Source: Marsupella aquatica (Eukaryota; Plantae; Marchantiophyta). Taken from it: 64,000 nucleotides of DNA. The DNA lies in NCBI GenBank assembly GCA_973895155.1, contig OZ316896.1, forward strand, positions 1,674,001 through 1,738,000, given 5' to 3'. The notes beneath the pieces are model-generated. The model worked only from the letters and a program-made list of their open reading frames with translations, was not told the origin of the DNA and searched no databases. Each line of letters opens with the position of its first letter. The stretch's first letter is position 1. The translations under genes and the position numbers were made by a program. Positions 1 to 33,145 of the stretch are shown here, piece by piece.

Positions 1-557
1 AATCGCTGACGAAACTCTTCGCCCTTCATTCCAAACAATTGTTGCCCGGCCTCATCCCAAACATGATAGCTCCCTTCTTTCACCCGAATGGTGAACATAA
101 ACATAAGCACTCCTTCGCCTAGCGGTTTACACCTATGCCCTACTCGATTTCGGCTAATAGGGGTTCCCATGTCGGTCCCCTCTTGTCTTTTCTGTCGAGC
201 CCTTGTGCCTAAGGCACAGACCTTGCCATCTGCTAGAAAGCCATCGCAACCTTCATAACAGAACTCTACTCCTATCCGGCCACTAATCGCGATGATCGTC
301 GCCTCTCCTAATTCTAGCCTTTCCGCCATTCTAACAGGATGCAATGAACTGCTACCGGTCCTTGCGTGCTGCTCCCTAAATACCCTGGATTAACTTCTGG
401 CTGACGCTTCTAAGACTAAAGGACTATAATTTAACCGGTGTAATGTTACCGTTTACAGCACCCTGCTGCAATGTTTCCACCCTTGTGTTGGCCTGCTTGA
501 GCGCATCTCTCAATGTGTGGGCAAGCTTGAGCCCCTCATGGGCCCCTTCACAAAATC

Positions 558-1570
558 CTATAATTCCGCCAAGTAGACCTCTGGAATGTCATAACCAAGG
601 GGCTCCTCTGGGTTCCCCACCAGAGATTCTAGCCACTCCAATGTGTACTCCTCATCTTGGATGTCCTCCTCAACTTGACTGTCTCCTATTCCTGCTGACA
701 CTGCTCGCACTTTCGTGACTTTCCCCGAGATGGTAGTGGCAATGCTGCGGATTTCCGTGGTAAGGGATGACCCCGCTTCTTCGGGCCCCGGGGAGGTAAT
801 CAATCCTTCTACCCTGGCCAACAAAAATGACCCCATCAAATGCAAAGCTTCTCCTGGTTTCAGACTCTTGGGTTTAGTAGCCAATAGCTTTGTCAATCCG
901 TAATACCACCATCCGTAAGCATGGGCTGGATATTTCCAAATATCCAGAGCAATTATGAAATGCTCCCCGTTCACTACCCCGTATTGCACATTACCGAGGA
1001 CCCGTTGATGAACCTTGGCCAGAAATCCCTTGTGTGCTGCATCCTTGACAGCCGAGAGATGAATGGCCGTGGTGGAGGTAGGATTGTTCACCCAGCATGC
1101 CACCATTGTCAACGTGAGATCCCCGACGATGTGTCGCGGGGTGAATAAGAACTGCTGGTTCTCCAAAAACAAAAGCTTAGCCAATTCGGCATGAGGTACC
1201 AAACGCTGAATACATGCAAAATAAATCCCCTCCGTGCGCAATTCCATTCCAGCCTCCAAGTCCCAACTCTTCCCTGGAGGGATTCTAATCTCTACTCTCA
1301 TGAAGTCGGTGAGCCCGGTGGCCTGGAACATAGCTTTGCAATCCTCCATCACCTGGCAGAGGTCTTGGGATAAATTCGACGAAAAACCTTCCTCATAACC
1401 GGTGCTGGACTTGCTGCCGGTCCAGTGCTCATTGCCGCTCTTCTTTCTTCTCTCTCCTCCTCAATTAGTGTCGCAATGTACTCATGGTAAGCGGCCTTGT
1501 ATCTACAAATGCGAGTCGCGCTGAACTCAGGCTGATCAAGCATCCATGCCCAGGAACAATTCCCAATCAC
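558..1570 (-). pseudogene. Frameshifted ORF pair (73 aa + 264 aa), probably a transposon accessory protein
   Basis: Overlapping minus ORFs 1349-1570 and 558-1352 with globular composition and an acidic tail. Weak pattern resemblance (FQATGLTDFM, HAELAKLLFL) to the core domain of the ORFs at 5477-7792 and 8751-11384. Lies in TE context. Confidence 0.35.
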
Positions 1571-1849
1571 AAAATCCGGTCACCACATTCAAATCCTGGC
1601 CCGAATGGCCCCCGTATCACGATTAAGAACCATCCTCAATTTCCCCAAAAGTCACTCCATGCCCTCGCCGCCAATGCCTGGAAAAAAGTGAGCCACCAAT
1701 CTTCAATAATTAACCATGAGAGAGCTTCAAAAATAATTGCAAGAGCTGGAGAGAGCTTTCGGCAATGAGGGAAGTCACGCACGGCGGAGAAAGGAGAGGA
1801 AAGAAAAACCAAAGGAAAAATAACAAAAAAAAGAACAAAGGGGAACCGA

Positions 1850-2820
1850 GTTCTCCCCTTTATCTCCAGTCCTCATGTCTCTGCGCCTGCCCTGACTCGC
1901 GGCTGCCTGCTACCACCTGGCTACGGCCTCCCGACTACCGGGAGCATTAATGCCCCCCCGGCTGGCCACGGCATCGCCTCGCGGTTGCCTGCCCCAACTC
2001 CATTCTTGCGGGAGAGTTAATACTCCCCCCCGTCACCTTACTCGCCCCTCACCAGCATGCCCGCGGCTTCACCTCGTGGGGCCCCAATGGGGTATTTAAC
2101 CCCTTTTAATCCTTCCCCTTTGGCGCATGATTGCGCGCTCCTTGGCCCTGACAGTGCCTCGTGGCTGCCACCTCGCGGCGCTCCTCCCTATGCAAGGCCT
2201 GCCACCGCAAGTGCCACCTGCCTCCCTCCTGGCTCCATTTCCTTTCGCAGCACGCGGCCCTATGCAAGGCACGCTGTCTCATTACTCCCGGCCTCTCACT
2301 CCCGGTTATGCCTCCCATCTGTGCCTCCCGTCTGTGCTTGGCCCCCTCATGGGAGGGTATAAGGTGACCCCCCTGCCCCGGATTGCAGCGCCCCATTTTG
2401 GGGGATTTAATTCCCCCCGGCAGCCTCACCCTGGCCATGGTAGCGCCTCGCGGGCTCACCGGCTCGCCTCGCGGCTACCTGCTTGCCCTGGCTGCCATTC
2501 GGTACCCTCCCGGGAGGGTATAATGTGATCCTCCCCGCAGCCTCCTTTATCTCCGGCCTGCCGTAGCGCTCCACTACCCTGGCGCCTCCTCCTCAATTAG
2601 CACTCGCGGGGTGCCATTTTGGGGTTTTAAACCCCCCTGTTCTTTCCTTCTAAATCCCCTGCGCCCTGGCAGCCCCTTTTACTCGCGGAGCCCTCCGGGA
2701 TTCCATGTGTCAGCACCTAGGGTTGCCCCTTATGGGCTCCCTGGCAGCATGCTTCCCTATGCAAGGGGGCTCGCCTTCGCCCCGACAGTCTCCCACTGCA
2801 AGCCTTCGCGGTAGCACCTA
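1850..2820. repeat. GC-rich degenerate tandem repeat block, TE non-coding type
   Basis: Recurring modules TTAA(T)-CCCCCC, CCTCGCGG, CCTATGCAAGG (~2187, 2259, 2756) and GGGAGGGTATAA (~2351, 2512). ORFs here are low-complexity shadows. Confidence 0.55.
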
Positions 2821-3118
2821 AGCTTTTAACCAAAAAACAAAGCACCCCCTCATATACCCTTTTACCTTAACTCTTAAAGTTCTTCTCCCTACTCCTTGCT
2901 ATTGGGGTCCCCAAAAATGGCCATAAAATAATGGAGAATCCCCCAAAGCAGAGCCTTCCATCAAATTCTATTTCTAAGGGGCCCAACGTATAAAATACTC
3001 CGGTCCATCATAAGTGACGGAATTAACTTCAAAAATTAAAAAAATGGCGTATTTACAATGGTTATTTACATGGCACAACCTCAGTAAACAATTAAGGAGG
3101 GTTTTCAGTGACGGGAAC

Positions 3119-4163
3119 CCCGTCGACACAAGATAAACTTGTTCCCATGAACCGTGCGGTGATCTTTACGAGGCAGTGGTTGGAAGACATTCTCACAAAA
3201 ATTGATATTTTGCCTTCGGCTTCTGTAGTGATTTTCTCCACGATTCCTCCGTTGCCATTCGCGGCCTGCTTGGAGAGGTCGATGTTGTGTGTGAGAATCA
3301 CCTTTCATCCGATTGCAATGTTTGACAGTGTGTGGAAGGAGGGATCTTGTATCCAAGGCCTGGTGGATTCATCTGAAAGGGCACTGGTGAGTATTGGGAC
3401 GGGCACGATCTCTTGGCGGGGAAAATATCTCTGTAATGCCCGTTTGTTGTAGTTGTCGACTATTTCTCTATGTGTGCATATCATGGTCATCGAGGCGTCA
3501 CTGAAATCATGGGCTTGTTGTTTGGACATGTAACATCGTCTCAGACTCTCATCGATCGATTCTTGGGTAGGGAGGCCTGTGCGGATGTTGTTAAGGAACT
3601 CCATGAACTCCCTGTCTGTGCTCTATTTGAGCACACTGCTGAGGTGAAATTTCCGCATGGTCTCAAAATATGGCAACGATGAGAGTTGGTACAACCTGCA
3701 TATGTTGTTGGTGTGGTGGGTGCAAACCGAAGGCAATTGGCACATGTCTCCGACCAGGATGACCGTCTTATTTTGGAACAGGTCGGATGAGCGGTCCTCG
3801 TCTTGGAGTGTCTCGTGTAGTCTTGTGGAGACGCAATGCAACAATTTGGGTGCAAGCATGCTTGCCTCGTCTATGATGAACACGTCATTGTTCCTCAAGA
3901 TGTGGTATTGGGGACTGGTGATGTGCAGAGGCCTGAGCTCTCCGTGTATTGGAATGCTGAACAAGGAATGCATTGTCACCGCGTCAGCGTGAAGGTTTAT
4001 GGCAGCCGCGCCCGTGGTGGCACACATCTTCACCTTCCTCCCTTTATATGTCTAGTATTTGTTCATGTACAAGATGAAGAAAATCTTGCCCGATCCCGGA
4101 TTTCCAACGATCATGAACAGACCGCTCTTGACATCCTTGAGTGCCTCAAACACTCTGATTTGG
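3119..4163 (-). pseudogene. Pif1-family SF1 helicase portion of RepHel, C-terminally truncated
   Basis: GNPGSGK (Walker A), ATTGAAA, TMHSLFSIP, IIDEASML (Walker B), ILVGDMCQLPSV, FLNNIRTG, ILTHNIDLSKQAANG. Contains stops. The final TxHKSQG-type motifs are missing. Confidence 0.9.
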
Positions 4164-4697
4164 TGTTGCATCCCTAACCTGGGCCTTAAATCCAGTTTAG
4201 TTCCATGGCGCAACCTCGACCACCAGTAGGGGTGAGGGTTCGGGCAAGGAGGTGTGTAGTGGCCCCGATTAGCCCTAAGTCGGGCTAAGTCGATATACTT
4301 ACTGGTATAACATTTACGCAATTTGTACTAGTCATAGGTACCCTTCCAAACTTGATGCTCCGTCTGGTTGTTGTAAATACACAGAACGGGACCGGGTAAG
4401 GGGCATGCCCCTTCCTACACGTCGAGTACAAAATCAAAGGTTACTAGCTCACTACACAGCTCCACTCGTAAGGCAAAATGAGTGCCCCCTCCATCTAGCG
4501 CCAAAAAACCGATCGCCGTATGTCGCGTCCCTAACCTGGGCCTTAAATCTAGTTTAGTTCCATGGCGCAACCTCGACCACCAGTAGGGGTGAGGGTTCGG
4601 GCAAGGAGGTGTGTAGTGGCCCCGATTAGCCCTAAGTCGGGCTAAGTCGATATACTTACTGGTATAACATTTACTCAATTTGTACTAGTCATAGGTA
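4164..4697. repeat. 177-bp direct repeat (4164-4340 and 4521-4697): two copies of the LTR-like terminus
   Basis: Copies differ at about 4 positions (TGTTGCATCC vs TGTCGCGTCC, TCCAG/TCTAG, ACGCA/ACTCA). Each contains the hairpin TTAGCCC-TAAGTC-GGGCTAA. Confidence 0.95.
4487..4503 (-). promoter_or_regulatory. Primer-binding site complementary to the tRNA-Asn 3' end
   Basis: Minus strand reads TGGCGCTAGATGGAGGG, a 16/17 match to the complement of the plant cytosolic tRNA-Asn 3' end as I recall it (CCCTCCTTCTAGCG-CCA). It lies 17 nt past the ...GCGACA end at 4521. Confidence 0.75.
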
Positions 4698-5476
4698 TAT
4701 TTATTTTCCACCGCTGAAATTTTCCCTCAGTTAGTGACTCGGACTAACTCCCGGCTTGGGGCTTTTCAAGCCATCGACGCAACAGAACCTTGTGACATGC
4801 AATGGGTGGCAATCCCTACCATTAGTCCGCACCCGGTACGTCCCTTAAAATGGCACCTTTGCCCAGACAAAGCATACACACAACACCAGTTACTTGCGGA
4901 AACATTAGAGGGAAAAGACTATATTTACTCAGCGAAGCATCAGTTTACATGGTTGACTCGACTTCTAAGGGGGTCAGCAGACCCAACGGCAGTTGATGCC
5001 CAGTCTCTACGAGGCCCCGCCTTGCACTTGCCCAACAAGCTCAACTCTGGCTCTCACTCCTTGGTGCACTCTGACCCTACTCAGGCTGGGACTCCCCGTG
5101 TCTCACCTTTTCTTCTCCTGAGATAACTAAGCCTTCTCCCCCTACCTTAGCGGAAGGGAACCGGAGGATACTACCTTCCGGGGCAATACATACTGACTAA
5201 CTACCCTCTGACTAACTGGCCGTGCCGTACTGACTGGTTGACCATTGACGACAAGAGTGCTAACCGGAATGGCAGCAGCTAAGCCTACTGACAAAATCTA
5301 GTCCGTTGATGGACTCCATCCTACGCTGGCTGCTCCTAACTGATTTGGTCCTAATTCTTCCTACTGCCGCTAATCGGCGCCTAATGATAGCTATTCTATC
5401 GTTACGCTTAACCAAAAGATGCCGCTGACTCAACTGCCTCGCGCGGCGCCTGCTTCCACCCTTCGCTAACCACCCC

Positions 5477-7792
5477 TTACGTGTGTGTTGTGGTCGGACC
5501 AGGGTTTGTCCCCCTGTCGGGGTGAGACCTCGAGCCGCCTTGATCAGAGGTGGGCCCAGGTTTTCCCCGCTCGAGGACAAGCAGGGCAACGTGATCCTGC
5601 AAGGCCTTGTTGTCCCGCACCGCCTCCTCCACCTTGTTTGCAGCTTCATCGGCCTCTGTCTGGAGCCGCGCTACCTCCAGGTTGAGCTGGTTAATGGAGT
5701 CGCGATGGGTCTGGTCCTGCGCCAGCAATTTATCCCATTTGGCGGAGAGACTAGCTACCTGCTGAGCTGCCTATAGGAACTGTTTGTTGAGGTCGGTCAG
5801 GCTGGTAACCCGAGCCAAAGATTCTGAGCGCAATTGAAGCACGGTGTCGTCCAGCTTCTTGAGATCTTCTTGCGCTCCGCTCAACTCCTGTGTTAGTCCG
5901 TCCCTCTGTTCGACGGTGCGGACTAACTCCTCGCGACAGGTAGTGGCCTCCTCCTCGAGGTGCTCTACCAGCATTTGGAGGCGCCCGATCTCATTCCCCT
6001 TCGCCATGAGTTCTTCTTCCAAGCGGCTTACGATTTGTGATTGGTGCTCTAACATGAAGAAGGCTGGTTGAAAGTACGCCGAGACTTGTTGTCCGATGTA
6101 CGTCGCCAGTTCCCTAGACATAGTTTGGCTAAACTTCTGGACCAGGTCGTACGCCATGGTCCCCGGGGCTACTTGGTAGTCCTCCATCCTCTCGGGTACC
6201 GGTGGTTCCTCGGGCGGGGCAACGATCTCCTCCGTAGTCTGCGCTGGGGAGGGGAAGGTTTCTTCAGGTGGTGGAGGGATTGGGGGTGGTTGTACCGCGG
6301 GTAGCGGAGGCTCAACGGAAGGCGGTGGCGGAATTTCAACAGGAGGAGGTGACGGAGTATTAGTCGGGGCTTCCGGCTCGGGGTTTGGCCGAGGGGCGGT
6401 AGTCCGCGCGCTCGGGGTTGCCTCCTCTGGGGCGGGGGTGACATTAGTCAGGGCTGAGGTGGCCATATTCTTTCCTCTGGCCTCTCGCCATGCCTTGTAC
6501 CAACCAAGGATGATGGCGATATGACTTCCCAAGTAAGTCTTCCTCCCAATAGCCATACCACCCTGAGCCCGCTTCAGCTCCCCCGAGAATCTATGGTAAA
6601 AGAATTGGGCCCAGTTCCGCCGTTTGTACTGTTCCACCTGTACGATCGTGCAGAGGGAGATCTCGGATCATGGCTCAATCATGTGTAGGGTAGTCCGTAT
6701 GAAGTTAAGCCGCTCCATGCAGATTAAGTTGGTGCACGACCCCTGTTTGTATCCGTTGTCTGTCTTACCCTTGGGTTTGAAGTGCCGAGGTGTATACTCC
6801 TTATCCCAAATTTGGAGTTCAACCGGCACCGGCCCGGTTGGCAGGCAGAAGATCTCTGCCAACCGATGCTCCGTGAGTGATAAGGTCTACCCTAAAATCT
6901 TAGTGGTCGATGCGTCGGTGTCGAAATTGGAGATGAACTCACAAATCTCCTTTGGCCTGACGGCGCACGGTCTCCATAGCAAGTGAGCGAACGGCTCCAA
7001 CTGATGCTCCTTGAGATAGTCCGCATGTTCGAGTTTCTTGATCGCGATCCAGACTACTTCGGGGACGCGGATCACCTGTAATAAGTTGGACTTCGGGTTA
7101 TCCGGGGGCCGTCGGGTCTGGTTGGCCGGGGGGTTTGCCGGGGCAGGTGCAGGTGCGACGTTGGTTCGCGTTGTTGATTCGGGGGCCGGCGTCGTCCTTG
7201 GCCGCTTACGGGAACGCTGCTCGAGTTGCGGACTAACTCGCTCGGAACCCAAAGGACACTTTGTGTTGATCACTGGTCGGACTTGGGACCGGTTTGGAGG
7301 TACGCCGGTGGTCATCGGCTGAGGTGCTGGTGGTGTTGGGGTGGCCATATCCCAGTCGAAGGCGTTGGAACTTTCCCTGAGGAAAGTAAGATTACGCGCC
7401 GCTTCCCGTTGTCTGCTGATGTCTTCTTGGCGCTTTTCGGCTGCGATCTGCTGGTCTAGGTACCCCGGAATCTTGTCAAACTCCGCTTGAGTAAGCTGCT
7501 GGCTGCCCTTCAGCCTAAAGAACTTTGCTGGGACCTCAAGAATTGCCTCTACTACCGATCTAAGCCCTTCCTCGCTGAGATATAGCTCGGTGATGTAGTC
7601 TCGTAGCTTGTTGTAGTTGGAATCCCTGGTGATGGCTGTCTTCTCACAATTAACCAGTGCTACCTTGGCCACCAGCTTCGCGTATCTTCGTTCGTAAGCG
7701 GCTTTCTCGGGACAAGAGTACCAGTAAGTCTCGGAGAACTTAGCACCTACCTCGCCAAACAAGGTCCAAAATCCCAAGGCTGTAAGGATCAT
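5477..7792 (-). pseudogene. Left-arm ORF (~771 aa): plant transposon accessory-type domain (Transposase_32/PMD-like), Pro-rich linkers, NLS, C-terminal coiled coil
   Basis: Track ORFs 6887-7792, 6668-6862, 5771-6637 and 5477-5728 share one frame, split only by stops at 6887, 6668 and 5771. Motif CEFISNF...LSLTEHRLAEIFCLP. NLS-like RSRKRPR. Confidence 0.8.
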
Positions 7793-8010
7793 ACTAACCT
7801 TGTAGTCCGGTTCATCGAGTCCGCGTTCCCACCCGGCTGGTCCTCATGCTTGTGGAGGCCTTGCTTGTCCTGACTAAATCTTGCCACATTCCACTCTTAT
7901 CCCTCGATAATCTCCTTGTAAAGGTCAGCTTGATTCGAGCAAAAAGGCGAGTGAATGGCAGCGTCCGCGAATTCCAAAAGGTAGAAATGAGCAAATGGCC
8001 CGCAATGCCA

Positions 8011-8027
8011 TCGGCTCCTCTCTTATG
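8011..8027 (-). promoter_or_regulatory. Degenerate TATA-like box of the left arm
   Basis: Minus strand CATAAGAGAGGAGCCGA, homologous to 8634-8650. Confidence 0.45.
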
Positions 8028-8633
8028 GAGGTGCCAGGATGAGCCCGAGCGTGAGAAGGCCAGGCCGTTTTGGTCGTTGATAATGAGCTGAAGTTGGCGC
8101 CTCGGTCCAAGCGTGATTCCTCTAACGGATTTTTACTCTGTCGCCGCCACTGTACCTCGGTCGCGCGTAATAATCCTCCTCCTAAATTTGTAATCATTCG
8201 GTCGACTTAACCTACTCCTAATCTATTTATAATGGCAACCGACGGCTATACGTGCTATTCTACGCTACGGCTACTGTGACGCCGCCGGTACGGCGAGTAA
8301 TGAGCAATTCGGTCTAAACCATGCCTAGCACGCGCGTTAGGGGTATCTTAGGCCGCTATGATTAGCATAACGACAGTATTTAGGTAACCATTATGAGTAG
8401 GAAATCATTAGTCAATAAGGGGAATTTATGTTCGGGCTGGCGGCGCATCGCCATTCGCACGCCCGGGTTACGAGCGTGGAGGGGCCCCTCCCTCGGGTCC
8501 GTATAACAAACTTCGGGAGGCGTCCACTGACACGCGGTGACTCAGATCGGCGGAGTGGCCGGTACACTACAAGCGTGAACGGTTCAGCCTATAGGCAGCG
8601 AGGAGATGTCGGGGGATCGGCAAGCCCTCAAGG

Positions 8634-8650
8634 TATAAAAAGGGAGCCGA
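8634..8650 (+). promoter_or_regulatory. TATA-like box of the right arm
   Basis: TATAAAAAGGGAGCCGA about 100 bp upstream of the ORF, with a mirrored motif in the other arm. Confidence 0.55.
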
Positions 8651-8750
8651 CCCTTTGGAGTGCACCAGTCCATCAGTCCACGTGCCAGCTTCGACCCCAG
8701 CTCTCTCGTTCACTCTAAGTCGCCACTACTATCTCCTCTGAATATCGTAC

Positions 8751-11384
8751 ACGATCCTCTCCAGCTCGGCCATTCGATTCTGGACACAATTCCTATCTAC
8801 CGGAAGGCACTTGGCCGACTCATTGAAACACGCCAACCCGCGCCGATACGAAATCGAACGCGAGTACGAGAGAGCCATCCACCTAGTAGGACGACACCAC
8901 TACATCCTTAACTTTGACTACCCGTCTCAGAGCGAGCTTTACCGACCAGTAGAGGTATCTGGGTACTTCTTCAACGGAGACAAATATATCGGTTTCTGGG
9001 AAGCATTGCTTCGGCTTCCGGACGAGGTCTTCAATATCCCGGGTACAATTGACTTGCAACGACATCACTTCGACCACATCCCTGCTCAGGTTAGGGCTAT
9101 CATCAAAAGCGAGTCCAGCACTACCCGTTCGACAAGGTCGTCCACACTTGCTTCGGAGAACTTCTACCAGCACCTGCAAAGCTTCATGGGAACTAGACCC
9201 GCAACCACCGGCGCCAGCCCAGTGGACCCCATACCCGTACCCGTACCAACGCAGACTCAGGCTCAGGCTCAGCTTCAAGCTCAGCTTCAGTCTCAGCCTC
9301 AGCGTAGCCAACCCCCACCGCCAATCGCCCCGCCAGCAGTACAAGTACGCTCTGTCATCAACGTTGTGGACCTTAGCGACGATGACGAGGCTACCCCACC
9401 CTTGCTCAGGCGGCCCAGAGGAGTAAACACTCAGGGGGCCGACACTACATCGCCCCCTCCCCATGCTCGGACCCAAGGAGCGGCTCCAGCAGACAACACG
9501 GTGACCGTGGCCGCCCCGGGACCAATACTAACGGCGGTAGCACTACCTATGCCCGATCGAGAGGATGGGGAGGTGTCACCTTCCCCGAGCCAGTCACGGG
9601 GGAAGAAGAGGAAGGAACCCGCCACTGCATCTGGGTTACCATTGGCCATGGTAGCAATGCACCGCATGGGGGAAAACGTGCATAAGAACATCCTCCATCC
9701 CAAGCATGCGGTGTACCTGAAGACTCAGGGATTTGAGCACCTCACCGCTCTGCCCTGGAACACTTGCAGGTACTACGAGGAGGACATGACAGAATTCGTC
9801 AAGAATTATGATGACACAAGTCAGCATACTCGGCTGCGGGGAAGGAATATGTCCCTCACGGAAGAACGGCTCAAGATGATCTTCGGATTACCCGAAGGTG
9901 ACCATCGAGTCGAATCACGGGCTCCCAGGGGCAAGGGAGCCAAGTACCAATCCTTGAGTTTTCCCTCAGAAGGGGCAGTGGACAACGGGTTCGTGATGAG
10001 GACCTGCCTCATCCCCGAGATAGCTGAGCGACTGGAGTTCCAGAGGTACGCCCTCCATATGATGGAACCCCGGGGGGAGATCTCCGCCGCGCAGGTTATC
10101 CAGGTCGAGAACTATCGACCTAGGAGGTGGGCGTCGTACTTTGCTAAGAAATTCCATGAAGAGATGGAGCGGCGAAGGAAGATGTTGTACATTGGCGGGA
10201 AGGCGTATTTCGCTAGCCACATCGAGATCATTCTTGAGTGGTACGCTCGGTTTGATCGACGAACCCTTCCCCGTGTCAACGTTACAAAGCTGGTCCCAGC
10301 TAGGTGGGTTTTCCCGACCTTGGAGAGACGGCCCCAACCCGAGGCCCGAAGTCCAGCGGACACGCCAGCTTCACCCACCCCACCTCCACAAGTAGCTGTA
10401 GTCGTAACCGAGGAGGTACCGGATGGGTCGGTTATCGCAACCGTTGATGCGATCTAATAGGCCGGGCTAAGTACAGAAGTCGGTACGGCGGAGGCCTTAC
10501 CCGAGCCCGAGTCTCGCAAAGACCCACCGGTGGCTATTCCGGAGAACCGGACATTGCTGCAGGAGGACACTCCAGCCCCTTCCAACATTACGTCCCCAGG
10601 GCTGGATGTCACTGCCCCGGCCCCCGCGCGTGTTGACGTCTGCCCGTGCCCAACTCCGGACAGGCACAACCTGGACCACCCGGAACTCTTCGTACTGGGT
10701 ACATTTCTGAATGGGCTTTTGGGAGATTTCTCTCATCAAATTGCCCGGGATACCGGGGAGTTCATGGCCCGGAAGGTAGCCTGTTTCTTCAATCAGGAGT
10801 TAGTTGCCGCAGTAAAGGCAGGTCGGGCCCAGTCAGAGGCCCTTCAGAGGATAGAGCGGTACCGGGTGGAGTCCGTATACTTAAAGAATGAAGTTGCGGC
10901 TCAAGAGGCTGAGCTTCTGCAACTACGACCCAAAGTTGCAGCCGCCGATGATTTGTTAGCAAAGGCGCACGCCCTTACCGCCCTAGCCGAGCAGGCCAAA
11001 GCTGGGAACGAGGCCGAGATTGCACGACTCCGGAACCAGATTGACAGTTTGAAGAATCAAACTGTCATCTGGCAGAAGGACCTGGAGGAGGCCGAAGAAC
11101 GGGCCCAGCGGGACACTACGGAGATAGCCACGCTACAGGCCGAAGTGGCACGGCTCCAAACTGAAGCCGAGAAGCAGGACCAGCTGGCGGGCAAGCTGAT
11201 GAGCGACGCCCAGCAGCTGGAGGAGGCATGCTAGGAGGCCGCAGAGGAGACAGATGCGGCAAAGCGAGAGAACGAATCTTTGCTGGACCAGGTCCAGCTC
11301 CTCAAGGCAGACAACGACAGACTTCGTAAGCAGCGGGATGGCCGCTCCCACTCGGGTGGCTCTGGCAAGCGTACCAAGCATTAG
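8751..11384 (+). pseudogene. Right-arm ORF (~877 aa), full-length paralog of the left-arm ORF
   Basis: Track ORFs 8811-10457 and 10530-11234 and the tail to TAG at 11382-11384 share one frame, with stops at 10455, 10458 and 11232. Shares FWTxF, EAxLxxP...FDxIP, DNG, ERLxF...LHMxEP, SHIxIILxWY and EVARLQTEA with the left ORF. Confidence 0.8.
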
Positions 11385-12282
11385 CGGCGGAGTAGGAATA
11401 GAATAGGGTTAGGAGTAGCTAGGTCAGGCTATTGGGACAGGCACCTGCCTTAGTTACAGTAGTACTGCCATGTTGTCCAGCCTGCGTAGATTAGGATCTT
11501 CTAATAAGACACAGCCGTTTTTCGGCCTGAAAGTCAGATTAGTTAGGACCTAAGTCAGCGAATCTTCGGGCGGGAGGACACTCCGTTCCCCGGCCCTTAG
11601 TATTTAGTGCACCCCTCGGTAGAGGCAGGGGGTTTTTAGTCTCAGAGTTGGACATCCGTGGTATGTGCGGGGAGTCCCGACCTCTGGGAGTGAAAGAGTA
11701 CCAAGGGGAGGGGGTAGGACTAAGCTCGCCGGGCGAGTGCGAAGCCGGGCTCCATTGTAGTATACTCTCTCGGCCTTGAACCTGTTCATTCCGGAGCTAT
11801 CGGGTCAACCAAGTGTACACACATGTCCCCTATGTAGTAAAATCCTTTCCCATTATTTCCTTCGTGTAAATCGAGATTGTATGCTTGTGCGCATGTATGT
11901 GTGTGTGAATCTCGTATATAGGTGACAATGCCGGGCCGAACGCACTACCCGAGTCGTGCACGGGGTGCAGCTTGCGGGGATGTGGTTGCGAGCACGGGTT
12001 GAGGAACTGTATCATAGAATCCGAATCAAAGGCGGACAATATGAAGGCCTAGAAGTCCTTAAGCCGGGGTCGATCCTATTATCGACTAAGGTACGTTCCG
12101 GCGGCGGAACATAAACCATACCTAGGAGATGCCCGTATCTAACAGTAGGCGCACTTAGCGCTAGTTTACGTGAATTAGGTGCATTACGCGCTTCCCTCCC
12201 TGCCCGAACCCTCATATTTATGAAGGAGGTGCCCGTTTAAAGCTGAAGCCCGAGTTTAGGCCAAGGCTGATGACGTGATAGC

Positions 12283-12358
12283 TACGGTCCTAACGACCGT
12301 ATAACTTGACCTAATCTATGACCTGGGTTCGGTTAAGTGACACGTCACCCGTGTCACA
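12283..12358. other. Terminal cap with two perfect hairpins
   Basis: TACGGTC-CTAAC-GACCGTA (12283-12301) and GTGACACG-TCACC-CGTGTCAC (12337-12357), the second abutting the terminal CA. Confidence 0.7.
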
Positions 12359-15137
12359 TTTGGTCAAGAGTCAAGTTGACGGTCGGGAGAGTTTTGTCGT
12401 TGAGCACTGGGCCGATTGGTTTCTCTATGATGACAGTGGGGACTACTTGGAATGTGGCCACGTTGTTGAAAATTTGGTGGGGAAGGTTTTCGTTCAGCTC
12501 TTGTAGGAGGTGGGATGTGTGGTGGGTGGAGTAGAGGTGCGATGCGCAATACTCAAGCACCAACTTGTGTATGTCGTCGACGCTGGTTATCAACTTGCGA
12601 TGTATGCACTCGTGCAAGTAGCTCCATGTCTCACTTATGGGCCTGAGGAGAATCTCGCCTTCTGCACGGAATCTCACGACCTTCAGGAGGTAGTTATAGA
12701 AAAAGCTGTTCATCCTGTATACTGGATGATACTCCAAAAATTGCATGAGCCAATCCGTCCGATACACAAAATTGCCTTGCAAATCCCTACTGACGTAGTC
12801 TTTGGTGGTGTTTTTCTTATTGGTTAGGACCTCGTGGTTGGTGAAGTAGTCGTAGAAGGACATTGCAAACATGTCCTCGGGCCTCTATGCGTAGAGTTTG
12901 GTGGGATGCAAACATATCCCCGAGGACTTACGGTAGATAGCGGACCTCAATTTCGAAGGTGGCGAGTCCATGAACGCCACTATCTCCGAGCACTGGATGA
13001 TGCTGATTTTGAGGCACGTCAAGGTCGCCTCCGTGGCGCACACGCTCTGAGATAGGATGGCTCCGCTAACGAGCTTGAGTTGGACTTCAGATAGGTCCTC
13101 GAGTCCTAAAGTACGTGCATCATTTGCATTGAGCTGGAGTGATCCCATGGGCTCACATTTGATGGCGTACTTGAGCAAATAGAATGACCAGGCCGCGTTT
13201 GTGACACGCTGTAGGTTCATGTGTGCACCCTATAACAGCAACACGAGCGAGTGGTATGGCACAACATTTTGGTGGTGGTCGCTTGGCGTGTGGTACCTCC
13301 ATTTCCTCATGGTGGGGTCGATGGCCGCATCTTTGTCGAGGTGAGTTTCTTGAGGGAAACCCAACTTGCAGTACTTGAGGCCGGTTTGGGAGTGCCTTTG
13401 CAAGCACAAGCCCTCCTTGCAGTAGTGAAGTTGTTTCGTCACCACGTTGCGATACAGGGTCTTTTCTTCAAGTCCATTCGGCTCTTCAAATCTGCCGGAT
13501 GTTGAGTCAAATCTGCCAGGGATGAATGTGGCTATTTCATTCGTGACTCGATCAACGTTGCAATCCTTGACCCATAGCACCGTGTGGGCGTGGAGTGATC
13601 CGCGGCCCTACAACTCATACTTGATGACATAGTGGATCATATTTCCGATTATGGCGCATTTTGACAAAATGTAATCCCTGAAAAAACGTTGGATTTATTC
13701 ATGGAAGAGCACGGCGCATCAACAGGACAATATTTCCATGAGAAGGTTGGATTCATCCTCTTCACAACGTTCCCAAGGTCGGCGATCTCAGGCCAATAGG
13801 TGTCACTGAGCTCATCGCAAGTGAGCGTGAGGAAGAAGTGGGGCAATCCCCATTTTCTCACCATGCACTTGAGGTTGTCGAGGTGTCTTTCATGCCACGC
13901 CGGGCTTCCAGGAACGGCCTGCATGATTGTCTTTTTTATCAGCATTTTGTATATTTCCTTCTCGCTAAAGTGGGGGCACTTCTCCTTGATCTGCATGTAT
14001 TCCTTGTCAATTACTATCGTCCTGCTCATGCTTGCTACTTGGCTGGCATGTCACAATTGGTACATGATAAACATGTACGGCTTGTACAAAGTGAATATGC
14101 TGAACAACTATTGTGTTCTCCATTTCATGTAGTCAATCACTTAAGCTAAGTTGTCCTCAATGGAAACCCCTTGAGTGGACAAACAAGAACGGGAACATTG
14201 CATTTTCCAATGTCAATTGCGGATCGTTCGACAATCCTTCCATGTCAGTGTTGACGCTCTCTTCCGAGCACATTCTCTTGCGGTCGTACACAGTGCCGGA
14301 ACGAAAGACCTGGTACTTGCGCTTGCGTGAAGTCAGGATCATGTACTGCACATCTTGGAGGATGTGCAGGTCGGGGTTGAATGGGTCAAAGTTCATGGAT
14401 CTTGTGGTGAGTCCCTTTGCCCTCTTGTCTTTGATGATGTTCTCTACTCCATCGGAACTAGGATGGACAGTCTTAGTGACGGGTCTGGCAGCTCGACCAA
14501 TGAAACGTATCTTCTAAAAAGTTGGTTGGTCATCAAATTGAGTTCCATGACCTCGTATATCTATCGCATGATCTCCTCTCGATTATTGCACTCTAGCGTG
14601 TCAAGATTCCAGGATATGAGCGGGTTGTCAAGGAGGTTTTCCTTTTTGTAGAAGCCAGAGTGGAAGCCATTGTACTTTTGTATGATGCCTAGTCGACAAT
14701 CGATTAGCGAGAGCAATTGCATGTACAACGGCTTCGCAGCTAGGATGTCGATCGCATATTGCGGAGATATGAAGGAGTTTATCTGGATACGGGTGGGGTT
14801 TTGCACGCAAGTCACGCACACGTTGATTGTTCCATCTTGGTTCTCAATGTACTGGTTGACAAATGCGTTGCATATGCCGTACGGCATCATGTTCACCTTT
14901 GGTATGGTGGTGAATGTCTTGTCGAGCCTCGGAGTGTTTCCGTATCGAGCTAGTTCGCACATCCCGCACACCTTCATGCCTTGGATTGTCTTTTAATTCG
15001 CAAACGACTCTCCATTCTTGGAGATAAAATGGGGCTGAGGCCCATCCTTGACATAACGGACTCAATGACTCAGCACAAGTGTTTATTGCACGCCTTCGTG
15101 CGGCATGTCTCTTCTCGGACATTGTACGTCGTGACAT
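12359..15137 (-). pseudogene. Helitron Rep (HUH Y2) portion plus Cys-containing N-terminal region
   Basis: PGSPAWH...GLPHFFLTLTC...WPEI (motif 1), YEL*GRGSLHAHTVLW (motif 2), YLLKYAIKCE (motif 3). Upstream CGMC and CVTC pairs. Several stops and frameshifts. Confidence 0.9.
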
Positions 15138-15301
15138 TTTTGGGGAAACCTATGCAAAGGATTATGAACTCATCAATTTTCTTAGCTAGGGTCCATCCAA
15201 AATTTGCTCAATGAAATCCCAGAAATGAGACTTGCTTATCATGATCTCGTAGTAACCAAGAAGAGTTGGTTACTTGGCTCCAACTCAAGTTAGTAGAGCG
15301 C

Positions 15302-15401
15302 TAAACACTTCTTGAAAGTCATGCCATAAACACTACTCAAAGGACATGCCATAAACACTACTCAAAGGACATGCCATAAACACTACTCGAAGGTCATGCC
15401 A
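15302..15401. repeat. 25-bp tandem repeat, 3 full copies plus partials
   Basis: CATGCCATAAACACTACTCAAAGGA at 15320, 15345 and 15370. Confidence 0.9.
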
Positions 15402-16130
15402 CTCATGAAGCAGGCGGTCGCGCGGCCTGTATCCACCAACACAACACCCAGATTACCGTTAGAACTTGTGACATTCACAAAAATTGGCTTGTCAGGATGT
15501 ACTGTCTTAGAACCTTAGGTAATTTCTCTCGCAACAACACCTTCTCTCCGATAGGCATATCCCCTATAGGGACCTCATCAACTACTAAGGGTTCGGTTAG
15601 AGCAATACTTACATTAATGCCCTTCTACCTTCCATCTCCGCTCGGCTTGCCACCTTGGTGGAACAATCCTTACTTTGATAACCCTTGGCGCCACACGTGA
15701 ATCACTATAAAGTTGTGGAGTTGTGTATGTAGGGTCTCTTGCCCCGTCGGGATACACACCAACTGGTTTTGATAATAAGTGATGAGCTTTTGGGTATCAC
15801 CCCTAAAGCTCATTTACGTTACACATCTCTAAGTGTGCCGCTCTAGGTACTTAGTGGGTGACATGAGCACGAAGACCCTCAACTAGGTTTTCCCAAGTTA
15901 ACGGCAAGGAGGAGTCCTCTTGCGACTTCTTCCAAGACTTGTACCATGTCAAGGCATAGTTCTCCCAGGTATTTTGGTTAGAGCAATACTTACATTAAGG
16001 TATAGTTACCAATCAAGGTATAGTTCTCCCAGGTATGCGAAACCCTATTGCATCATTCACACGATAGGCCCACAAAGATAATACGGTTTAGGTGGTGTTG
16101 GAGACACCCAAGTAAATGGGCGTGGACAAA

Positions 16131-16422
16131 AGCTACCATGTTAGCCGAATCAAGAAATTTGTCCAAGACGATGATCCCACCTGGGATCAAGTCTTGCGTT
16201 TGGACGCTATGCTGGTGGAGGACGCTCAGGAGTTTGAGGTGGAGGCAATTCTATACGTTTGTTACAAACGCAAGTTGGGAAGACAAATCTTAGTCAGAGT
16301 ATTTCGTGAAGTGGGCTGGTTATGACCAGGCCGAGAATAATTGGCAACCGGAAGAAAATTTGGGTAATGTCTCAGAGATCTTTGGAAGCTATCGTAACCG
16401 AAGTGGCCTACCGCCTTTGTGA
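16131..16422 (+). pseudogene. Chromovirus (Ty3/gypsy) integrase C-terminus with chromodomain, frameshifted
   Basis: YHVSRIKKF (end of the GPY/F region), then FEVEAIL...EYFVKWAGYDQAENNWQPEENL after one frameshift. Confidence 0.8.
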
Positions 16423-16503
16423 CTTGGTACATGCAACTATAGAACCTTGTAATCTAATCTAATGAATTATATAGGTTTAATACTCAATATGAAGATATAT
16501 TTG

Positions 16504-16507
<4 letters not shown>

Positions 16508-16534
<27 letters not shown>
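16508..16534. repeat. (TA)n microsatellite
   Basis: About 13 TA units. Confidence 0.95.
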
Positions 16535-16535
<1 letters not shown>

Positions 16536-16603
16536 AAGACTTTTTTCTTCATGTTATTTACAAAGTGAGGATCTTTGTTGCAATTCAAAATTGTAATGAC
16601 AAA

Positions 16604-25140: not shown

Positions 25141-25768
25141 CCTATTTACCAACGTCTGTTGAGCTTGAGTTAGGATGCTAGACTTGACGAGTTCTAGATC
25201 CGGAAGGGTTATTTACCGAGGTGCTTGGTTGCTTGTGCAGACAGTGAGGACCGTTGAGTAGCGATCGTGTAGGTGAGCAAGTGCGGCTTCGTATGGGAGG
25301 GGCCGCTGGTGGTGCAAGAGACACTAGAGTGCTTGCTCGAGGCATTTTGTGGAGACGTTTGGACACCAAGGGCACTTAGGCGTGAGTGCTGGGATTGGTG
25401 AGGGCACTGAGTGGCAAGGTTCACCACTCACATCTTGTTTCATGCGGATGTTGCTGACATGGCGCACTGTGGAGTCTCGAATTTTGGAAGGGACCTCTAG
25501 TGGGGTCTGTAAAGAGATGATAAACGACAAAGTTTCATTAATCTTGGGGTTCCATAGAAGTTACTTGGTCGTAGGAGCCTATCAGTTCAAACCCAAATGG
25601 AATCGTCATATTTGTTATTCGATCCGATGTTCCTGCCAAGTGGGTTTTGCATAATATTACAGTAGTTCTTAAAGCATACTTAGTCTGATCACGCACCTAA
25701 TTGATATTTATCTATGCCTAAACTAATCAAACCTTAATTATAATATTAAGAAAGATGTTATATTATTA

Positions 25769-26135
25769 CCAACGTCATGCTTGACAAAGATTTCGATTGT
25801 CGCTTGGGTGATTTTGGACTGGCAAGATTGTCTGACCACCACACCACACCACCCATACAGCAGTTCTGGCAGGGACCCTAGGATATATGGCTCCAGAGCT
25901 TTTTTACACTTTGAAAGCCACAGAGAAAACTGATGTGTACAGCTTGGGAGCAATGGTGCTTGAGGTGGCTATAAGTAATAAATCTAATACGTGCAGCAGA
26001 AGGTTGGAACTGATAACATTTTACTTGTAAATTGGGTTGTGGGACCTTTGCGGAAACTACACATTCTTGGACGCCGAGATTTACGACTACAAAATTCATA
26101 TGATCGGGGCAAGATGATCATGTTCTTGAAGATTG
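25769..26135 (+). pseudogene. Fragment of LecRK kinase domain (subdomains VIb-XI)
   Basis: Clear nucleotide copy of 29145-29516 (NVMLDKDF.CRLGDFGLARLSDH...GYMAPELF...MFLKI) with small indels. Confidence 0.92.
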
Positions 26136-26249
26136 TCCTAGCCTGTTGCCTAAGTTCCACGCAACCCATCACCCAGCCGGCCTCAGTTGAGGCAGTATAT
26201 GTCTGTTACAAGCTCTGACTTGATCACAAGGTTTTATTTCACAGATTTT

Positions 26250-26373
26250 TTAGGATCTTTATAAAGTAATGAAATGGAACTCAAAACAAAATAAGTATTA
26301 AATTTTTCTATTTAGGATCTTTATAAAGTAATGAAATGGAACTCAAAACAAAATAAGTATTAACTTTTTCTAT
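26250..26373. repeat. 62-bp tandem duplication
   Basis: TTAGGATCTTTATAAAGTAATGAAATGGAACTCAAAAC... occurs twice. Confidence 0.9.
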
Positions 26374-26699
26374 TATCAGGGTGAGTCAGTCTAGGGATCT
26401 GGTTCAATGCCAAGCTATGTGCGCCAGTCTTTTGTTAATCCACTGCATGAGGCATTCCCACAATTGGCCGTGTGTGCTTTAGTAGTATGTGATAATTTGA
26501 TGCTGAACGGGTGAGAGAGCCCTCTGGAATTGTTAGATGTCCAGGATCCTTCGAATTAATTCAGCAATTTGTGAGAAAATTGCAAAGCTCATCAGCGTGT
26601 GAGTCGGAAATGGATTGAGCCGGCCTGCAAGCTGCTGGTTGTTGCTCTATCAGTCCAACTGACCAAATTTGTAGGGCATAAGAGAATGTAGAGAAGAAA

Positions 26700-26830
26700 A
26701 TTGATTCTCTCCTCGGGAAGTACATCCAATTTCGAATCGCCAATATCCTCTTCATTCTTCCTCGGGACGTAACATCCAATTGATTCTCTCCTCGGGACGT
26801 AACATCCAATTGATTCTCTCCTCGGGACAT
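26700..26830. repeat. 30-bp minisatellite
   Basis: ATTGATTCTCTCCTCGGGACGTAACATCCA-type units, about 4 copies, some degenerate. Confidence 0.85.
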
Positions 26831-27550
26831 AATATCCTGCTACTCCGTGTTCATCGAACAGTTTTGATAAACGTAAATTACTTGTCTTACTAGCCCCAGC
26901 GCATCAGGCAACAACATGCACCTCATGTAGCACGTCGATCTGCTGGCACATTTCACGAAAATGCATTGATGTTCGGTGGATGCTGAAGCATAACTAATAT
27001 TGCTGGGAGGATGCAAGGTTTTAGAGTCGACAAACTAAATAAGCATTAAATACGCTGGAAGTCACCTGAATCTTGCTGAGCTCAGTTCTGGAATACGGCC
27101 ATTGGCACCATTGATATATTTGCCGTCTTCAGGGGCTGTTTGCCTCTAAATAAGCTTTCGGTCAATTTCTTAAGAGTAATGTCGTGCGTGACTTGTAAGT
27201 TGTTTGGGGCCGGTGTTTCACGAGGTTGCTATACCCTAGCCTGCAGCACACTAGAAAAATTTGCGTAAATTGCGTGACTGTACACAAACTGATTCACAGA
27301 AAATCTTACATAGGACTAGTCTAGAGATACAAGTCATTCCAGCTTTGCAACGAGCTTATTGGACCCGCGTTGAGTTGTGTACTGTAGATCAATCAACACG
27401 TCTTGTGCTCTGTATGTTATGTGAATAGAGTGTACCTTGCGCGTTCACTTTGAGCTCTCAATTGTCATTGACTTGCTATGCTGTGACAATCGATCCCGAT
27501 GGATTGATAACAACCGTTTGGTCTGAGTATCCTTAAATATCTGGAGCAGT

Positions 27551-29824
27551 ATGAGTTTTCCCAAGGGCAGGAGCGTTGCTTGTACACTTCCTCGGCATTT
27601 TGAATTCCTCTTCTTCGCCCTCGTGATTTTTAGTTCGTCGGTTGCACTGGGACAGTCCCCTGCCGTCTTTCATTACGGTAACAGCTTCCAGACGAGTGAT
27701 GGCGTGAACATAACCCTTACAGTACCATATGCTCCAAACATTAGGATTAGTGAAATCCACGATGTCAACTTGACGTGTCATGCTGATTTTCATCTCGTTA
27801 ATACCAGTCTTGTGCTGACCAGTCGGGTAGGAATGACTAAGGGCAGTTTTTCAGGGAGGTGCTTCTACAACATGCCCGTCCAGCTTAGTCCTTTCTGCAC
27901 TTCGTTTACTGCGAACTCTTTCAGCACAATGTTTCAAGTCGCGATAAGTTCCCAATTGAATTCGTCTCTGGACCACAGACTAGGTTTCGTCCTGATGGCC
28001 GATAACTCCACGCAGGATGAGGGTTGCTGGGATCTGAATCACACCTTCAATGGGCAGGCCTCGTCGAACGGTCGTTGCTTTGCCGTCGCTGAAATCAAAT
28101 TCTTCCACGATGATCCATACACCTTCTCTGTTGGTGCAGCCCCAAATTTTACCCGCGTTCCATGGAGCGACTATAGTGATGCCGAGTTCCTTTCGTTACG
28201 AGTGTGGATACAATACCACGGTGACGCTAAGATTCTAGAAGTATTTATTACTGGGGGGTTCAAGAGTGGCATGCTAGGAAATTTTCCTCCCAAGCCCACG
28301 CTGCCAATCATTTCCACTGCTGTAGATCTGACCGAACGAGTGAACTCAAATTTCTCTCTATTCGGCCTCTCGACGCTGTTTGTGGGATTTTCGGTGTCCG
28401 GGAATTCCTCTGCGTCTGCGTTGGATCCGAGCAATAGTGACGTTCAGTACATGATCGATGCGTGGACTTTCAATTCCAACGGGTTCGCTCCAGACTTTGA
28501 CTATGTAACGCCGTCAGACCAAGGGTCTGGCAGCATCCACGACCTCAAACCTATTACTGCCGTTATTGCTTTACACTTTGGTTTCCTTCTCGTGTACATC
28601 GTGTATTTACTCTACAAGCAATATTCTCGACTGATTGCACTTGGTAAGAAATACGAGATAGAACACGGCGTACTCGATCGAGGTCCCCAAACGTTCAAGT
28701 ACGCAGCGCTCCATACTGCAACGAAGGGATTCAGCTCGAACCAACTGTTGGAGAGGGGTGGCTTCGGTTCGGTTTACAAAGGTCAATTAGTGCTCAAGGG
28801 CGATAAAAGTCCAATCAGTATAGCAGTGAAACGAATTTCTTCCACCTCAAGCCAAGGTGCTCAAGAGTTCTTGGCCGAGGTGAGGATCATTGGTCAAGCG
28901 CAACACCGAAACCTGGTGAGGTTATTAGGTTGGTGCCACGAAAAGGGCGAACTATTACTTGTTTATGATTACATGCCTAACGGAAGCGTGGACCACCACC
29001 TGTTCAGGGACACAAGTGATGCCGTGGGTGATCCTATCCTGACGTGGTCGAGAAGGTTGAGGATTATGAGCGGCGTAGCGGCAGCCCTCACCTATTTGCA
29101 CGAGGAATGGGAAAAACGCGTTTTCCACAGGGACGTCAAATGCTCCAACGTCATGCTCGACAAAGATTTTAATTGTCGCTTGGGTGATTTTGGACTTGCA
29201 AGGTTGTCTGACCACGACACCGCACCACCCAGTACAGCAGTTCTGGCAGGGATCCGAGGATATATGGCTCCAGAGCTTTTTTACACTCTGAAAGCCACAG
29301 AGAAAACTGATGTGTACAGCTTCGGAACAATGGTGCTCGAGGTAGCCACGGGTAAGAAATCTTTACTATGTGCAGCAGACAGGGCTGGAACGGATCACAT
29401 TTTACTTGTAGATTGGGTGTGGGATCTTTATGGGAATGACACATTGTTGGACGCAGCCGATTGCCGACTACAAAATTCATATGATCGGGGCGAGATGGTC
29501 ATGTTCTTGAAGATTGGGCTTCTGTGCTCCCATCCCGACCCAAACGAAAGACCGTGCATGAGGGAGGTCGTCAATATCTGGAAAGGGTTGAGTCCCTTTC
29601 CACCATTGCCACTCTCGAAACCAGTCCCTTTTCAAACGTTGGCTACGGATGGCCTTGAGTTCCGTTCAGGGTCTACGGGGACGATATACAGCGCACCGAC
29701 GACGCCTTCAATTGAAGATGGCGAGTCAACTTTGGCTGAGAAACCTGATAATGGGCAAGAAAGTGGTGATCCAAGGTCGACGTTGCGTTTGAGGCCACGC
29801 CCTATTGCATCCCTCCCCTACTAA
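27551..29824 (+). CDS. LecRK: L-type lectin receptor-like kinase (757 aa, single exon)
   Basis: Signal-like hydrophobic N-terminus, legume-lectin features (SFSTMF, RVWIQY, FVGFS, WTFNS), TM helix, GPQTFKYAALHTATKGFS, IAVKR, HRNLVRLLGWCHEKGELLLVYDYMPNGS, HRDVK, DFG, APE. Confidence 0.95.
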   Translation: MSFPKGRSVACTLPRHFEFLFFALVIFSSSVALGQSPAVFHYGNSFQTSDGVNITLTVPYAPNIRISEIHDVNLTCHADFHLVNTSLVLTSRVGMTKGSFSGRCFYNMPVQLSPFCTSFTANSFSTMFQVAISSQLNSSLDHRLGFVLMADNSTQDEGCWDLNHTFNGQASSNGRCFAVAEIKFFHDDPYTFSVGAAPNFTRVPWSDYSDAEFLSLRVWIQYHGDAKILEVFITGGFKSGMLGNFPPKPTLPIISTAVDLTERVNSNFSLFGLSTLFVGFSVSGNSSASALDPSNSDVQYMIDAWTFNSNGFAPDFDYVTPSDQGSGSIHDLKPITAVIALHFGFLLVYIVYLLYKQYSRLIALGKKYEIEHGVLDRGPQTFKYAALHTATKGFSSNQLLERGGFGSVYKGQLVLKGDKSPISIAVKRISSTSSQGAQEFLAEVRIIGQAQHRNLVRLLGWCHEKGELLLVYDYMPNGSVDHHLFRDTSDAVGDPILTWSRRLRIMSGVAAALTYLHEEWEKRVFHRDVKCSNVMLDKDFNCRLGDFGLARLSDHDTAPPSTAVLAGIRGYMAPELFYTLKATEKTDVYSFGTMVLEVATGKKSLLCAADRAGTDHILLVDWVWDLYGNDTLLDAADCRLQNSYDRGEMVMFLKIGLLCSHPDPNERPCMREVVNIWKGLSPFPPLPLSKPVPFQTLATDGLEFRSGSTGTIYSAPTTPSIEDGESTLAEKPDNGQESGDPRSTLRLRPRPIASLPY

Positions 29825-32875: not shown

Positions 32876-33145
32876 GGCTTCTGCGCAACAAAATCGACGC
32901 TCCACGGAGGGTGATCGATGGGGGAGCGATGGTGCACCCGCAAGCGCGCACTGTATATCTCAACTCGTGTACCTTGTGCTGTGGGCTATGGCGGGCTCCT
33001 CAAACGGCCGCACTTTGCCGGCCGGAGGCCAACAATCCCGATTTTCCCGCTCCGGTAACAAGCGCGAAATTTACGTTGCTGCGCTGGATATTCCTTTTTG
33101 CATGCTTGGTGCATTCCTTCCAGGATCTATTTACAGTATGCAAGG

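Follow-up and report, generated by a model that had tools for sequence, protein, structure and literature searches.

Our preferred reading of the Marsupella aquatica locus described here, to which we assign a probability of roughly 0.7, is that two related units of about 4 kb lie nested and facing in opposite directions inside a Helitron, and that they are likely gene-containing LTRs of Ty3 families. A sequence-only reading of the same 64,000-nucleotide stretch of DNA (the window) had described a single 7.8-kb palindromic LTR with two genes; what we found instead is a 4.0-kb insertion, with a duplication of its own, inside a 3.8-kb unit. The outcome is more specific than the original claim, namely likely LTR units of ~4 kb that belong to two sister families and that each enclose a long conserved gene. 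The nesting and deletion seen here are ordinary events. Other copies were followed in contigs of public sequencing runs; the stretch is present in five of six runs, from three studies, of which the best-matching one may derive from the source sample, and X6 (share 0.01) was left out.

The outer limits of the locus are set by the following features.

3130 to 15000 (limits approximate), minus strand: decayed Rep/helicase of the host Helitron, split by the composite element (PIF1, E 6.5e-11; Helitron_like_N, E 7.6e-08)
4159 to 4163: outer target site duplication, copy 1 (CCAAA on the minus strand, TTTGG on the plus strand), backed by the empty-site joint
12359 to 12363: outer target site duplication, copy 2 (CCAAA on the minus strand, TTTGG on the plus strand)

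The composite element runs on the minus strand from 12358 to 4164, between the two copies of CCAAA. Its TG start at 12358, already proposed from the sequence, is the TGTGAC of element B on that strand and is flanked by the duplication. Element B thus carries the 5-bp target site duplication of an LTR retrotransposon, with CCAAA on both sides, as well as TG...CA termini (TGTGAC at the start, GCGACA and GCAACA at the ends). With the composite removed, the helicase reading frame of the host Helitron is continuous across the empty site, and this empty site exists as a contig joint from 4157 to 12358 in three of four runs (one contig in X1, five in X2 and four in X3). The host Helitron is itself repeated, with empty-site contigs in X1, X2 and X3 (3130-4163 and 12359-15000).

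A separate observation concerns the minus strand of positions 1-3130, where a GC-rich segment starting with TG begins near 3130, the point at which the Helitron helicase frame stops. It contains a 300-codon frame at 558-1460 and another frame at 3-389, which we take to resemble the C-terminal OB fold of RPA70. The segment gave no Pfam match at E≤1 and is possibly another insertion with cargo genes.

Inside the outer duplication, the two units are delimited as follows.

4521 to 8269, minus strand: main part of unit B, a likely 5' LTR, bounded by contig joints and the inner duplication
8270 to 8274: inner target site duplication GCTAC, copy 1, from a contig joint sharing 5 letters
8275 to 12280, plus strand: unit A, 4,006 bp, TGTGAC...GTGATA, from its termini, GCTAC on both sides and contig joints
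12281 to 12285: inner target site duplication GCTAC, copy 2, flanking unit A
12286 to 12358, minus strand: first bases of unit B with the TGTGAC start, from the terminus and contig joints

Leaving out unit A and one copy of the inner duplication, unit B amounts to 3,827 bp, and unit A lies in reverse orientation 78 bp inside it. Copies of B that lack A are represented by a joint from 8269 to 12281 with 5 shared letters, found in one contig each of X1, X2 and X3 (three of four runs), and by a joint from 8274 to 12310 in X2 and X3; neither joint was seen in X5, and the short side of the contigs that cross unit A is 24 letters. The window sequence backs these joints, since 8275-12280 starts with TGTGAC, ends with GTGATA and has GCTAC on each side. 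The joints, together with the GCTAC duplication and termini of its own, identify unit A as an independent insertion: a 4.0-kb unit inserted backwards into the related 3.8-kb unit B.

A 7.8-kb palindromic LTR with two genes, moving as one unit, would have accounted for the mirroring of the arms in DNA and protein and for an outer duplication that encloses both. The mirror symmetry is pronounced (~980 and 850 bp align with a score of 273, against a maximum of 118.5 in 100 shuffles), and the DNA alignment, which was found before the joint was known, starts exactly at 12280 and at 4521. Against this, arm A is bounded by a duplication and termini of its own, B continues across the site of A in other copies, and depth is unequal between the arms. 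Summed depth rises at ~8300 in all four runs; in X1 it is 27,000-128,000 to the left of this point, 88,000-369,000 to the right and 2,000-4,000 in the Helitron, values that are not copy numbers and that we therefore take only as high, unequal repetition of the arms. We consider a 7.8-kb LTR highly improbable. The two units, as we delimit them, are similar at the DNA level over their last ~900 bp; an alignment of the end of unit A with the LTR end of unit B has 176 identities in 315 columns. Over their first 600 bp, A and B are no more alike than shuffled sequences.

Unit B is followed on the minus strand by the elements expected downstream of a 5' LTR and then by a truncated repeat.

4504 to 4520, minus strand: 17-nt spacer separating the LTR end from the primer binding site (PBS), variable among copies in contigs
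4486 to 4503, minus strand: PBS starting with TGG, presumably of tRNA-Asn type, from the sequence and from contigs that bridge to the LTR end
4341 to 4485, minus strand: 5' leader remnant, multi-copy, going on elsewhere in four of four runs
4164 to 4340, minus strand: last 177 bp of the 3' LTR of element B, 173/177 identical to 4521-4697

The succession of a GCGACA end at 4521, 17 nt, the PBS-like site and ~145 bp had been described from the sequence, and all of it is in place, the site at 4503-4486 reading TGGCGCTAGATGGAGGGG. This 18-nt site is unique in the window at ≤3 mismatches. We take TGGCGCTAGATGGAGGGG to match 17 of 18 positions of the 3' end of plant tRNA-Asn; no tRNA was found in the window or in three viral loci with a similar motif, and no Rfam match was found within 3500-13000. 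Among the contigs listed, LTR end, spacer and PBS are bridged in X1, X2 and X3, with variants of the spacer. The spacer had been called atypical for its length; at 17 nt it is long, but it is no one-off, since several contigs bridge it with variants, and we regard the long spacer as a family trait. At 4521, other contigs turn into flanks that are unrelated (agreement 0.53-0.56 in X1, X2 and X4), as would be expected of solo or 3' LTR ends.

In all four runs, depth at the PBS (4477-4509) exceeds that of the leader next to it severalfold; perhaps other families, that of unit A among them, share this primer site.

The truncated repeat pairs 4164-4340 with 4521-4697 at 97.7% identity (4 mismatches, 2 at CpG), so that the proposed second copy of the last 177 bp is present, and self-BLAST gave this pair as the sole direct repeat of the element. 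The junction between leader and repeat lies at 4341/4340, 180 bp past the LTR of element B. In other copies, the leader instead leaves the window sequence at 4342/4343 and enters one common sequence (four to five contigs per run in four of four runs, agreement 0.87-0.92), visible for 30 letters past the junction. Because the leader runs on into other sequence elsewhere, the deletion is confirmed, in keeping with the earlier proposal that a single event took out the interior together with most of the 3' LTR. Among the contigs listed, the deletion junction is bridged with 0 mismatches by a single contig in X2, at depth 69, and by a single contig in X3, at depth 31; in X3, the leader has a depth of 357-564 and the LTR end 5,900-16,600. 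A short match of TACC at the junction suggests that the deletion may have proceeded through microhomology. We also considered the 177-bp pair as a TRIM and rejected it, as the repeat starts with TACC, has no duplication of its own and adjoins a leader that in other copies runs on into different sequence.

A block conserved between B and A (4690-4712 and 12090-12120, respectively) lies about 180 bp from the LTR end and coincides with the deletion junction; it is a candidate promoter or 3'-end signal. The AATAAA of B as it stands here is not shared by all copies.

These boundaries support the earlier view that a long, gene-containing unit resembling a 5' LTR precedes the PBS: in unit B, a TG start, a gene, a CA end and the PBS follow one another. 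Unit B is likely an LTR because TG stands at the integration site, the CA end precedes the PBS, and this end recurs at the far duplication. No direct or inverted repeat was detected between the first and last 500 bp of unit A or of unit B, which for B indicates one unit rather than a short-LTR element plus interior. Terminal repetition was seen for the last 177 bp of element B only, the contigs being short. Unit A bears the signature of a solo LTR, since it is homologous to B in its gene and last ~900 bp and has its duplication directly at its ends; it contains neither a PBS nor an interior, and its end GTGATA is one change from CA. By these sequence features, units A and B are likely both LTRs, and A, which lies in reverse, is probably the solo LTR of an element from a sister family.

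Three other origins for the units were weighed. They could be deletion derivatives of short-LTR elements, in which the start of a 5' LTR, an internal extra ORF and a 3' LTR became fused and were later amplified. The extra ORFs of Retand, Ogre and Athila adjoin the 3' LTR internally, as described in PMC6317226, PMC11963269 and PMC7264820, and the likeness of A and B over their last ~900 bp, undetectable over the first 600 bp, would fit. Against such an origin, neither unit has a direct repeat between its ends, no PPT followed by TG was noted inside, the same fusion would be needed in two families, the PBS follows the end of B, and depth is high along the whole unit. We consider it very unlikely. 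The units could also be non-autonomous, Ginger-like DNA transposons with TG...CA ends and an incidental PBS, given that such ends, like the 5-bp duplications, are compatible with any Ty3-type integrase and that VANC, discussed below, is itself a DNA-transposon gene. We rejected this reading and give it hardly any weight: there are no terminal inverted repeats, several contigs show a PBS after the end, and a second occurrence of this end stands just ahead of the outer duplication.

The third possibility concerns the family and leaves the units as gene-carrying LTRs, here of non-autonomous, LARD-like elements with an interior devoid of gag-pol and moved in trans. No gag-pol, RT, integrase or PPT was seen in this copy, whose interior is deleted and is known in other copies for the 30 letters past the junction. 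None of our evidence speaks directly against LARD-like elements, which we judge unlikely; they would change the family label and leave the gene-in-LTR claim intact. Scans of metagenomes for a related locus returned 96 and 241 pattern matches, of which 0 were confirmed.

By analogy, the families that contributed the two LTR units are likely high-copy, non-chromovirus Ty3 elements of Athila/Tat type. Like the non-chromovirus OTA Ty3 elements for which these features are described (Athila, Ogre, Retand and TatII), the element here has a 5-bp duplication and probably long LTRs; LTRs of up to about 5 kb are given for non-chromovirus Ty3 elements (PMC6317226) and of 1.9-6.5 kb for Ogre (PMC6431247). 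Asn primers are tabulated for 12% of Athila, 15% of TatII and 4% of Retand elements (PMC6317226 supplement). The PBS of Athila is likewise offset from the LTR, although by a 3-6 bp spacer (10.64898/2026.03.20.713144) as against the 17 nt of element B. Among the domains described for accessory ORFs of non-chromovirus Ty3 elements are PMD, Transposase_28 and Athila, alongside coiled coils of SMC-like type (PMC6317226, PMC11963269, PMC7264820), and further extra ORFs are described in PMC11728184. Tat elements are on record in liverworts (PMC10508981, PMC13468544, PMC12885004), where Tat Z2 is described as lacking aRH (PMC13468544), and Ty3 bursts are described in PMC9985172.

The position of the gene sets the locus apart from these elements. 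In the descriptions of Athila, Ogre, Retand and TatII that we drew on, extra ORFs are internal, whereas the ORF here is enclosed by the TG start and by the CA end that precedes the PBS. Neither unit has the internal layout of Retand, Ogre or Athila, since gene B is upstream of the LTR end and PBS and gene A is inside a unit that has a duplication of its own at its borders. In its workings, the locus would resemble an element of Athila/Tat type whose accessory gene is VANC-like. A protein gene within an LTR is found in the retrovirus MMTV, in the form of sag; the units here would share this arrangement, although MMTV is an animal retrovirus and sag a short ORF for an unrelated protein. Cassandra TRIMs, as described, are plant LTRs with functional cargo, but their LTRs are short and the cargo, a 5S rRNA-like sequence, is non-coding. 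In our survey of the literature, of partial coverage and with subscription journals outside it, we encountered no protein gene inside a plant LTR and no VANC-like protein in a liverwort retrotransposon.

The two genes and the associated features are located as follows.

5477 to 7792, minus strand: gene B, 772 codons, stops at 6889, 6670 and 5773, no frameshift, by translation
8634 to 8641, plus strand: TATA-like box, a candidate from sequence only, ~110 bp upstream of gene A
8742 to 11384, plus strand: gene A, about 880 codons, stops at 10455, 10458 and 11232, no frameshift, by translation
9648 to 10277, plus strand: core domain of gene A, with a predicted VANC21/DUF1985/PMD-like fold, from a structure model, Foldseek and full structural alignment

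Both gene copies are decayed and broken by stop codons. Their proteins are paralogues (24% over 877 columns, E 3e-57), and gene A encodes an N-terminal helical domain, a Pro-rich linker, the core domain, a second linker and a coiled coil. The core is an open frame in this copy, gene A has no ATG at the position where its relatives start, and nearly all other contigs differ from this copy at the first stop. Among 1.84 billion proteins, the core domain has 42 relatives at E≤0.001. One of them, 906 aa long and unbroken, has the layout of gene A, from N-terminal domain through Pro-rich linker and core to coiled coil (34% over 545 columns, E 2e-91). An organism name was attached to five of the 20 relative clusters looked up, all Calypogeia fissa, with one further match besides, and at least seven relatives are unnamed gene products in one liverwort annotation. 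Word-indexed protein searches, a weak method, gave no match at E≤0.001 in two cases and two matches in a third; a search of this kind likewise revealed no long fused form of the gene, which is weak evidence. Seven of nine segregating differences are synonymous, as against two of nine near-fixed ones (Fisher p 0.057; 18 coding sites, 40 of 1,372 rows), a weak hint of selection on the source elements and decay in this copy.

Several Calypogeia fissa relatives have neighboring accessions on shared contigs (CAM6101869/70 and 79/80, with the order of lengths reversed, and CAM6086213 and 15), perhaps because copies are clustered or nested in that species too.

Sequence-based annotation of the protein was uninformative: neither the window proteins nor 41 relatives have a Pfam match to DUF1985 or PMD, and nothing but coiled coils was reported. 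The functional prediction comes from structure. The core was modeled from a 30-row alignment with high confidence (pLDDT 94.1, pTM 0.90), and its top Foldseek match is DNA-bound VANC21 (E 0.012, probability 0.99, TM 0.56; next match, E 3.3). In full structural alignment to 48,161 chains, VANC21 alone reaches Z≥5, with a Z of 8.0 at rmsd 4.1 over 196 aligned residues, and the next chain has 2.5. A second alignment to VANC21 gave Z 8.1, so that the two span Z 8.0-8.1, rmsd 3.9-4.1 and 191-196 aligned residues. Leads from the ESM Atlas are DUF1985 and PMD clusters (0.84-0.90). A library of viral folds gave no clear match for the core (best E 0.009, TM 0.24), and the N-terminal domain, modeled at pLDDT 75, gave no Foldseek match (best E 2.6). 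At an identity of 10-11%, a Z of 8.0 counts as middling, and a like fold proves no function; on the modeled structure, the LTR gene is predicted to encode a VANC-like DNA-binding protein.

VANC21, the DUF1985 protein of VANDAL Mutator-like transposons (PDB 9lnj, 9lnk), would share its fold with the modeled core over 196 of 210 residues. It is described as binding a short motif and stripping methylation from its own transposon family (PMC5735166). As a transposon accessory gene with a coiled coil it is like the gene here, and VANC oligomers have been predicted (PMC13547354). Differences from VANC21 include the 10-11% identity, the lack of a Pfam match, an LTR-type carrier and the lack of motif arrays in our search, in which the top 6- and 7-mer counts of the non-coding parts did not exceed those of 200 shuffles (one decayed copy per family). 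The carrier is not of VANDAL type, having 5-bp duplications and a PBS and lacking terminal inverted repeats. Moreover, VANC is described as dicot-specific (PMC13547354), whereas the named relatives here are from a liverwort. PMD-C is reported to be structurally similar to DUF1985 (10.1101/2024.09.27.615353; PMC13547354), and PMD-A to be Gypsy-encoded in the angiosperms surveyed (PMC5418596); the gene here has no PF10536 match. The accounts of PMD-A that we drew on (PMC5418596, 10.1101/2024.09.27.615353) do not report a location inside LTRs such as that of the genes here, and they propose an anti-silencing role for PMDs borne by transposable elements.

Given this architecture and the modeled fold, an anti-silencing role for the LTR gene is plausible at slightly less than even odds. 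The main alternative is a general transcriptional or chromatin role for the element. MAIN/MAIL proteins, which have the same fold, also serve host silencing.

The features described above show that element B integrated into the Helitron with a 5-bp duplication, that its leader became joined to the last 177 bp of its 3' LTR, probably through microhomology at the observed junction, and that sister element A integrated in reverse 78 bp inside the likely 5' LTR of B. The last two events may have come in either order. Element A would then have been cut to a solo LTR by LTR-LTR recombination. Judging from its fold, the LTR-borne protein may bind short DNA motifs, oligomerize through the coiled coil and counter silencing in trans on the chromatin of its own family, as VANC does for VANDAL.

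It is by the formation of solo LTRs that plants are taken to render LTR elements harmless. A gene located inside the LTR would stand twice in each intact element and survive this process, since recombination to a solo LTR would leave the gene cassette behind; leftover solo LTRs may therefore keep a gene that helps the family to escape silencing. We tentatively speculate, at odds of about one in three, that liverwort Ty3 families carry an anti-silencing gene of VANC/PMD fold inside a 4-kb LTR, making every solo LTR a potential source of a trans-acting reactivator. If true, this would be a protein-coding LTR in a plant and would move VANC-type counter-defense back to LTR elements of early land plants. 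The fold links VANC anti-silencers, Gypsy-borne PMD-A and extra ORFs of unknown function, and the host MAIN/MAIL proteins, and a liverwort family with an open, well-folded predicted core makes the role of Ty3 extra ORFs directly testable. Gene-bearing repeats of 4 kb would escape annotation settings designed for short LTRs and be labeled host genes.

Elsewhere in the window, we noted a frameshifted remnant on the plus strand at 15900-16400, presumably the end of a chromovirus integrase with a chromodomain. At 31934-34300, a 313-codon ORF with a NAM-associated domain (E 1.4e-06), which we assume to be like a Harbinger accessory gene, adjoins a degenerate tandem repeat block. Lectin receptor kinase sequence at 25700-29824 is duplicated at a distance of 3.4 kb, and a CNNM-CBS frame of 498 codons runs without interruption through 58749-60245.
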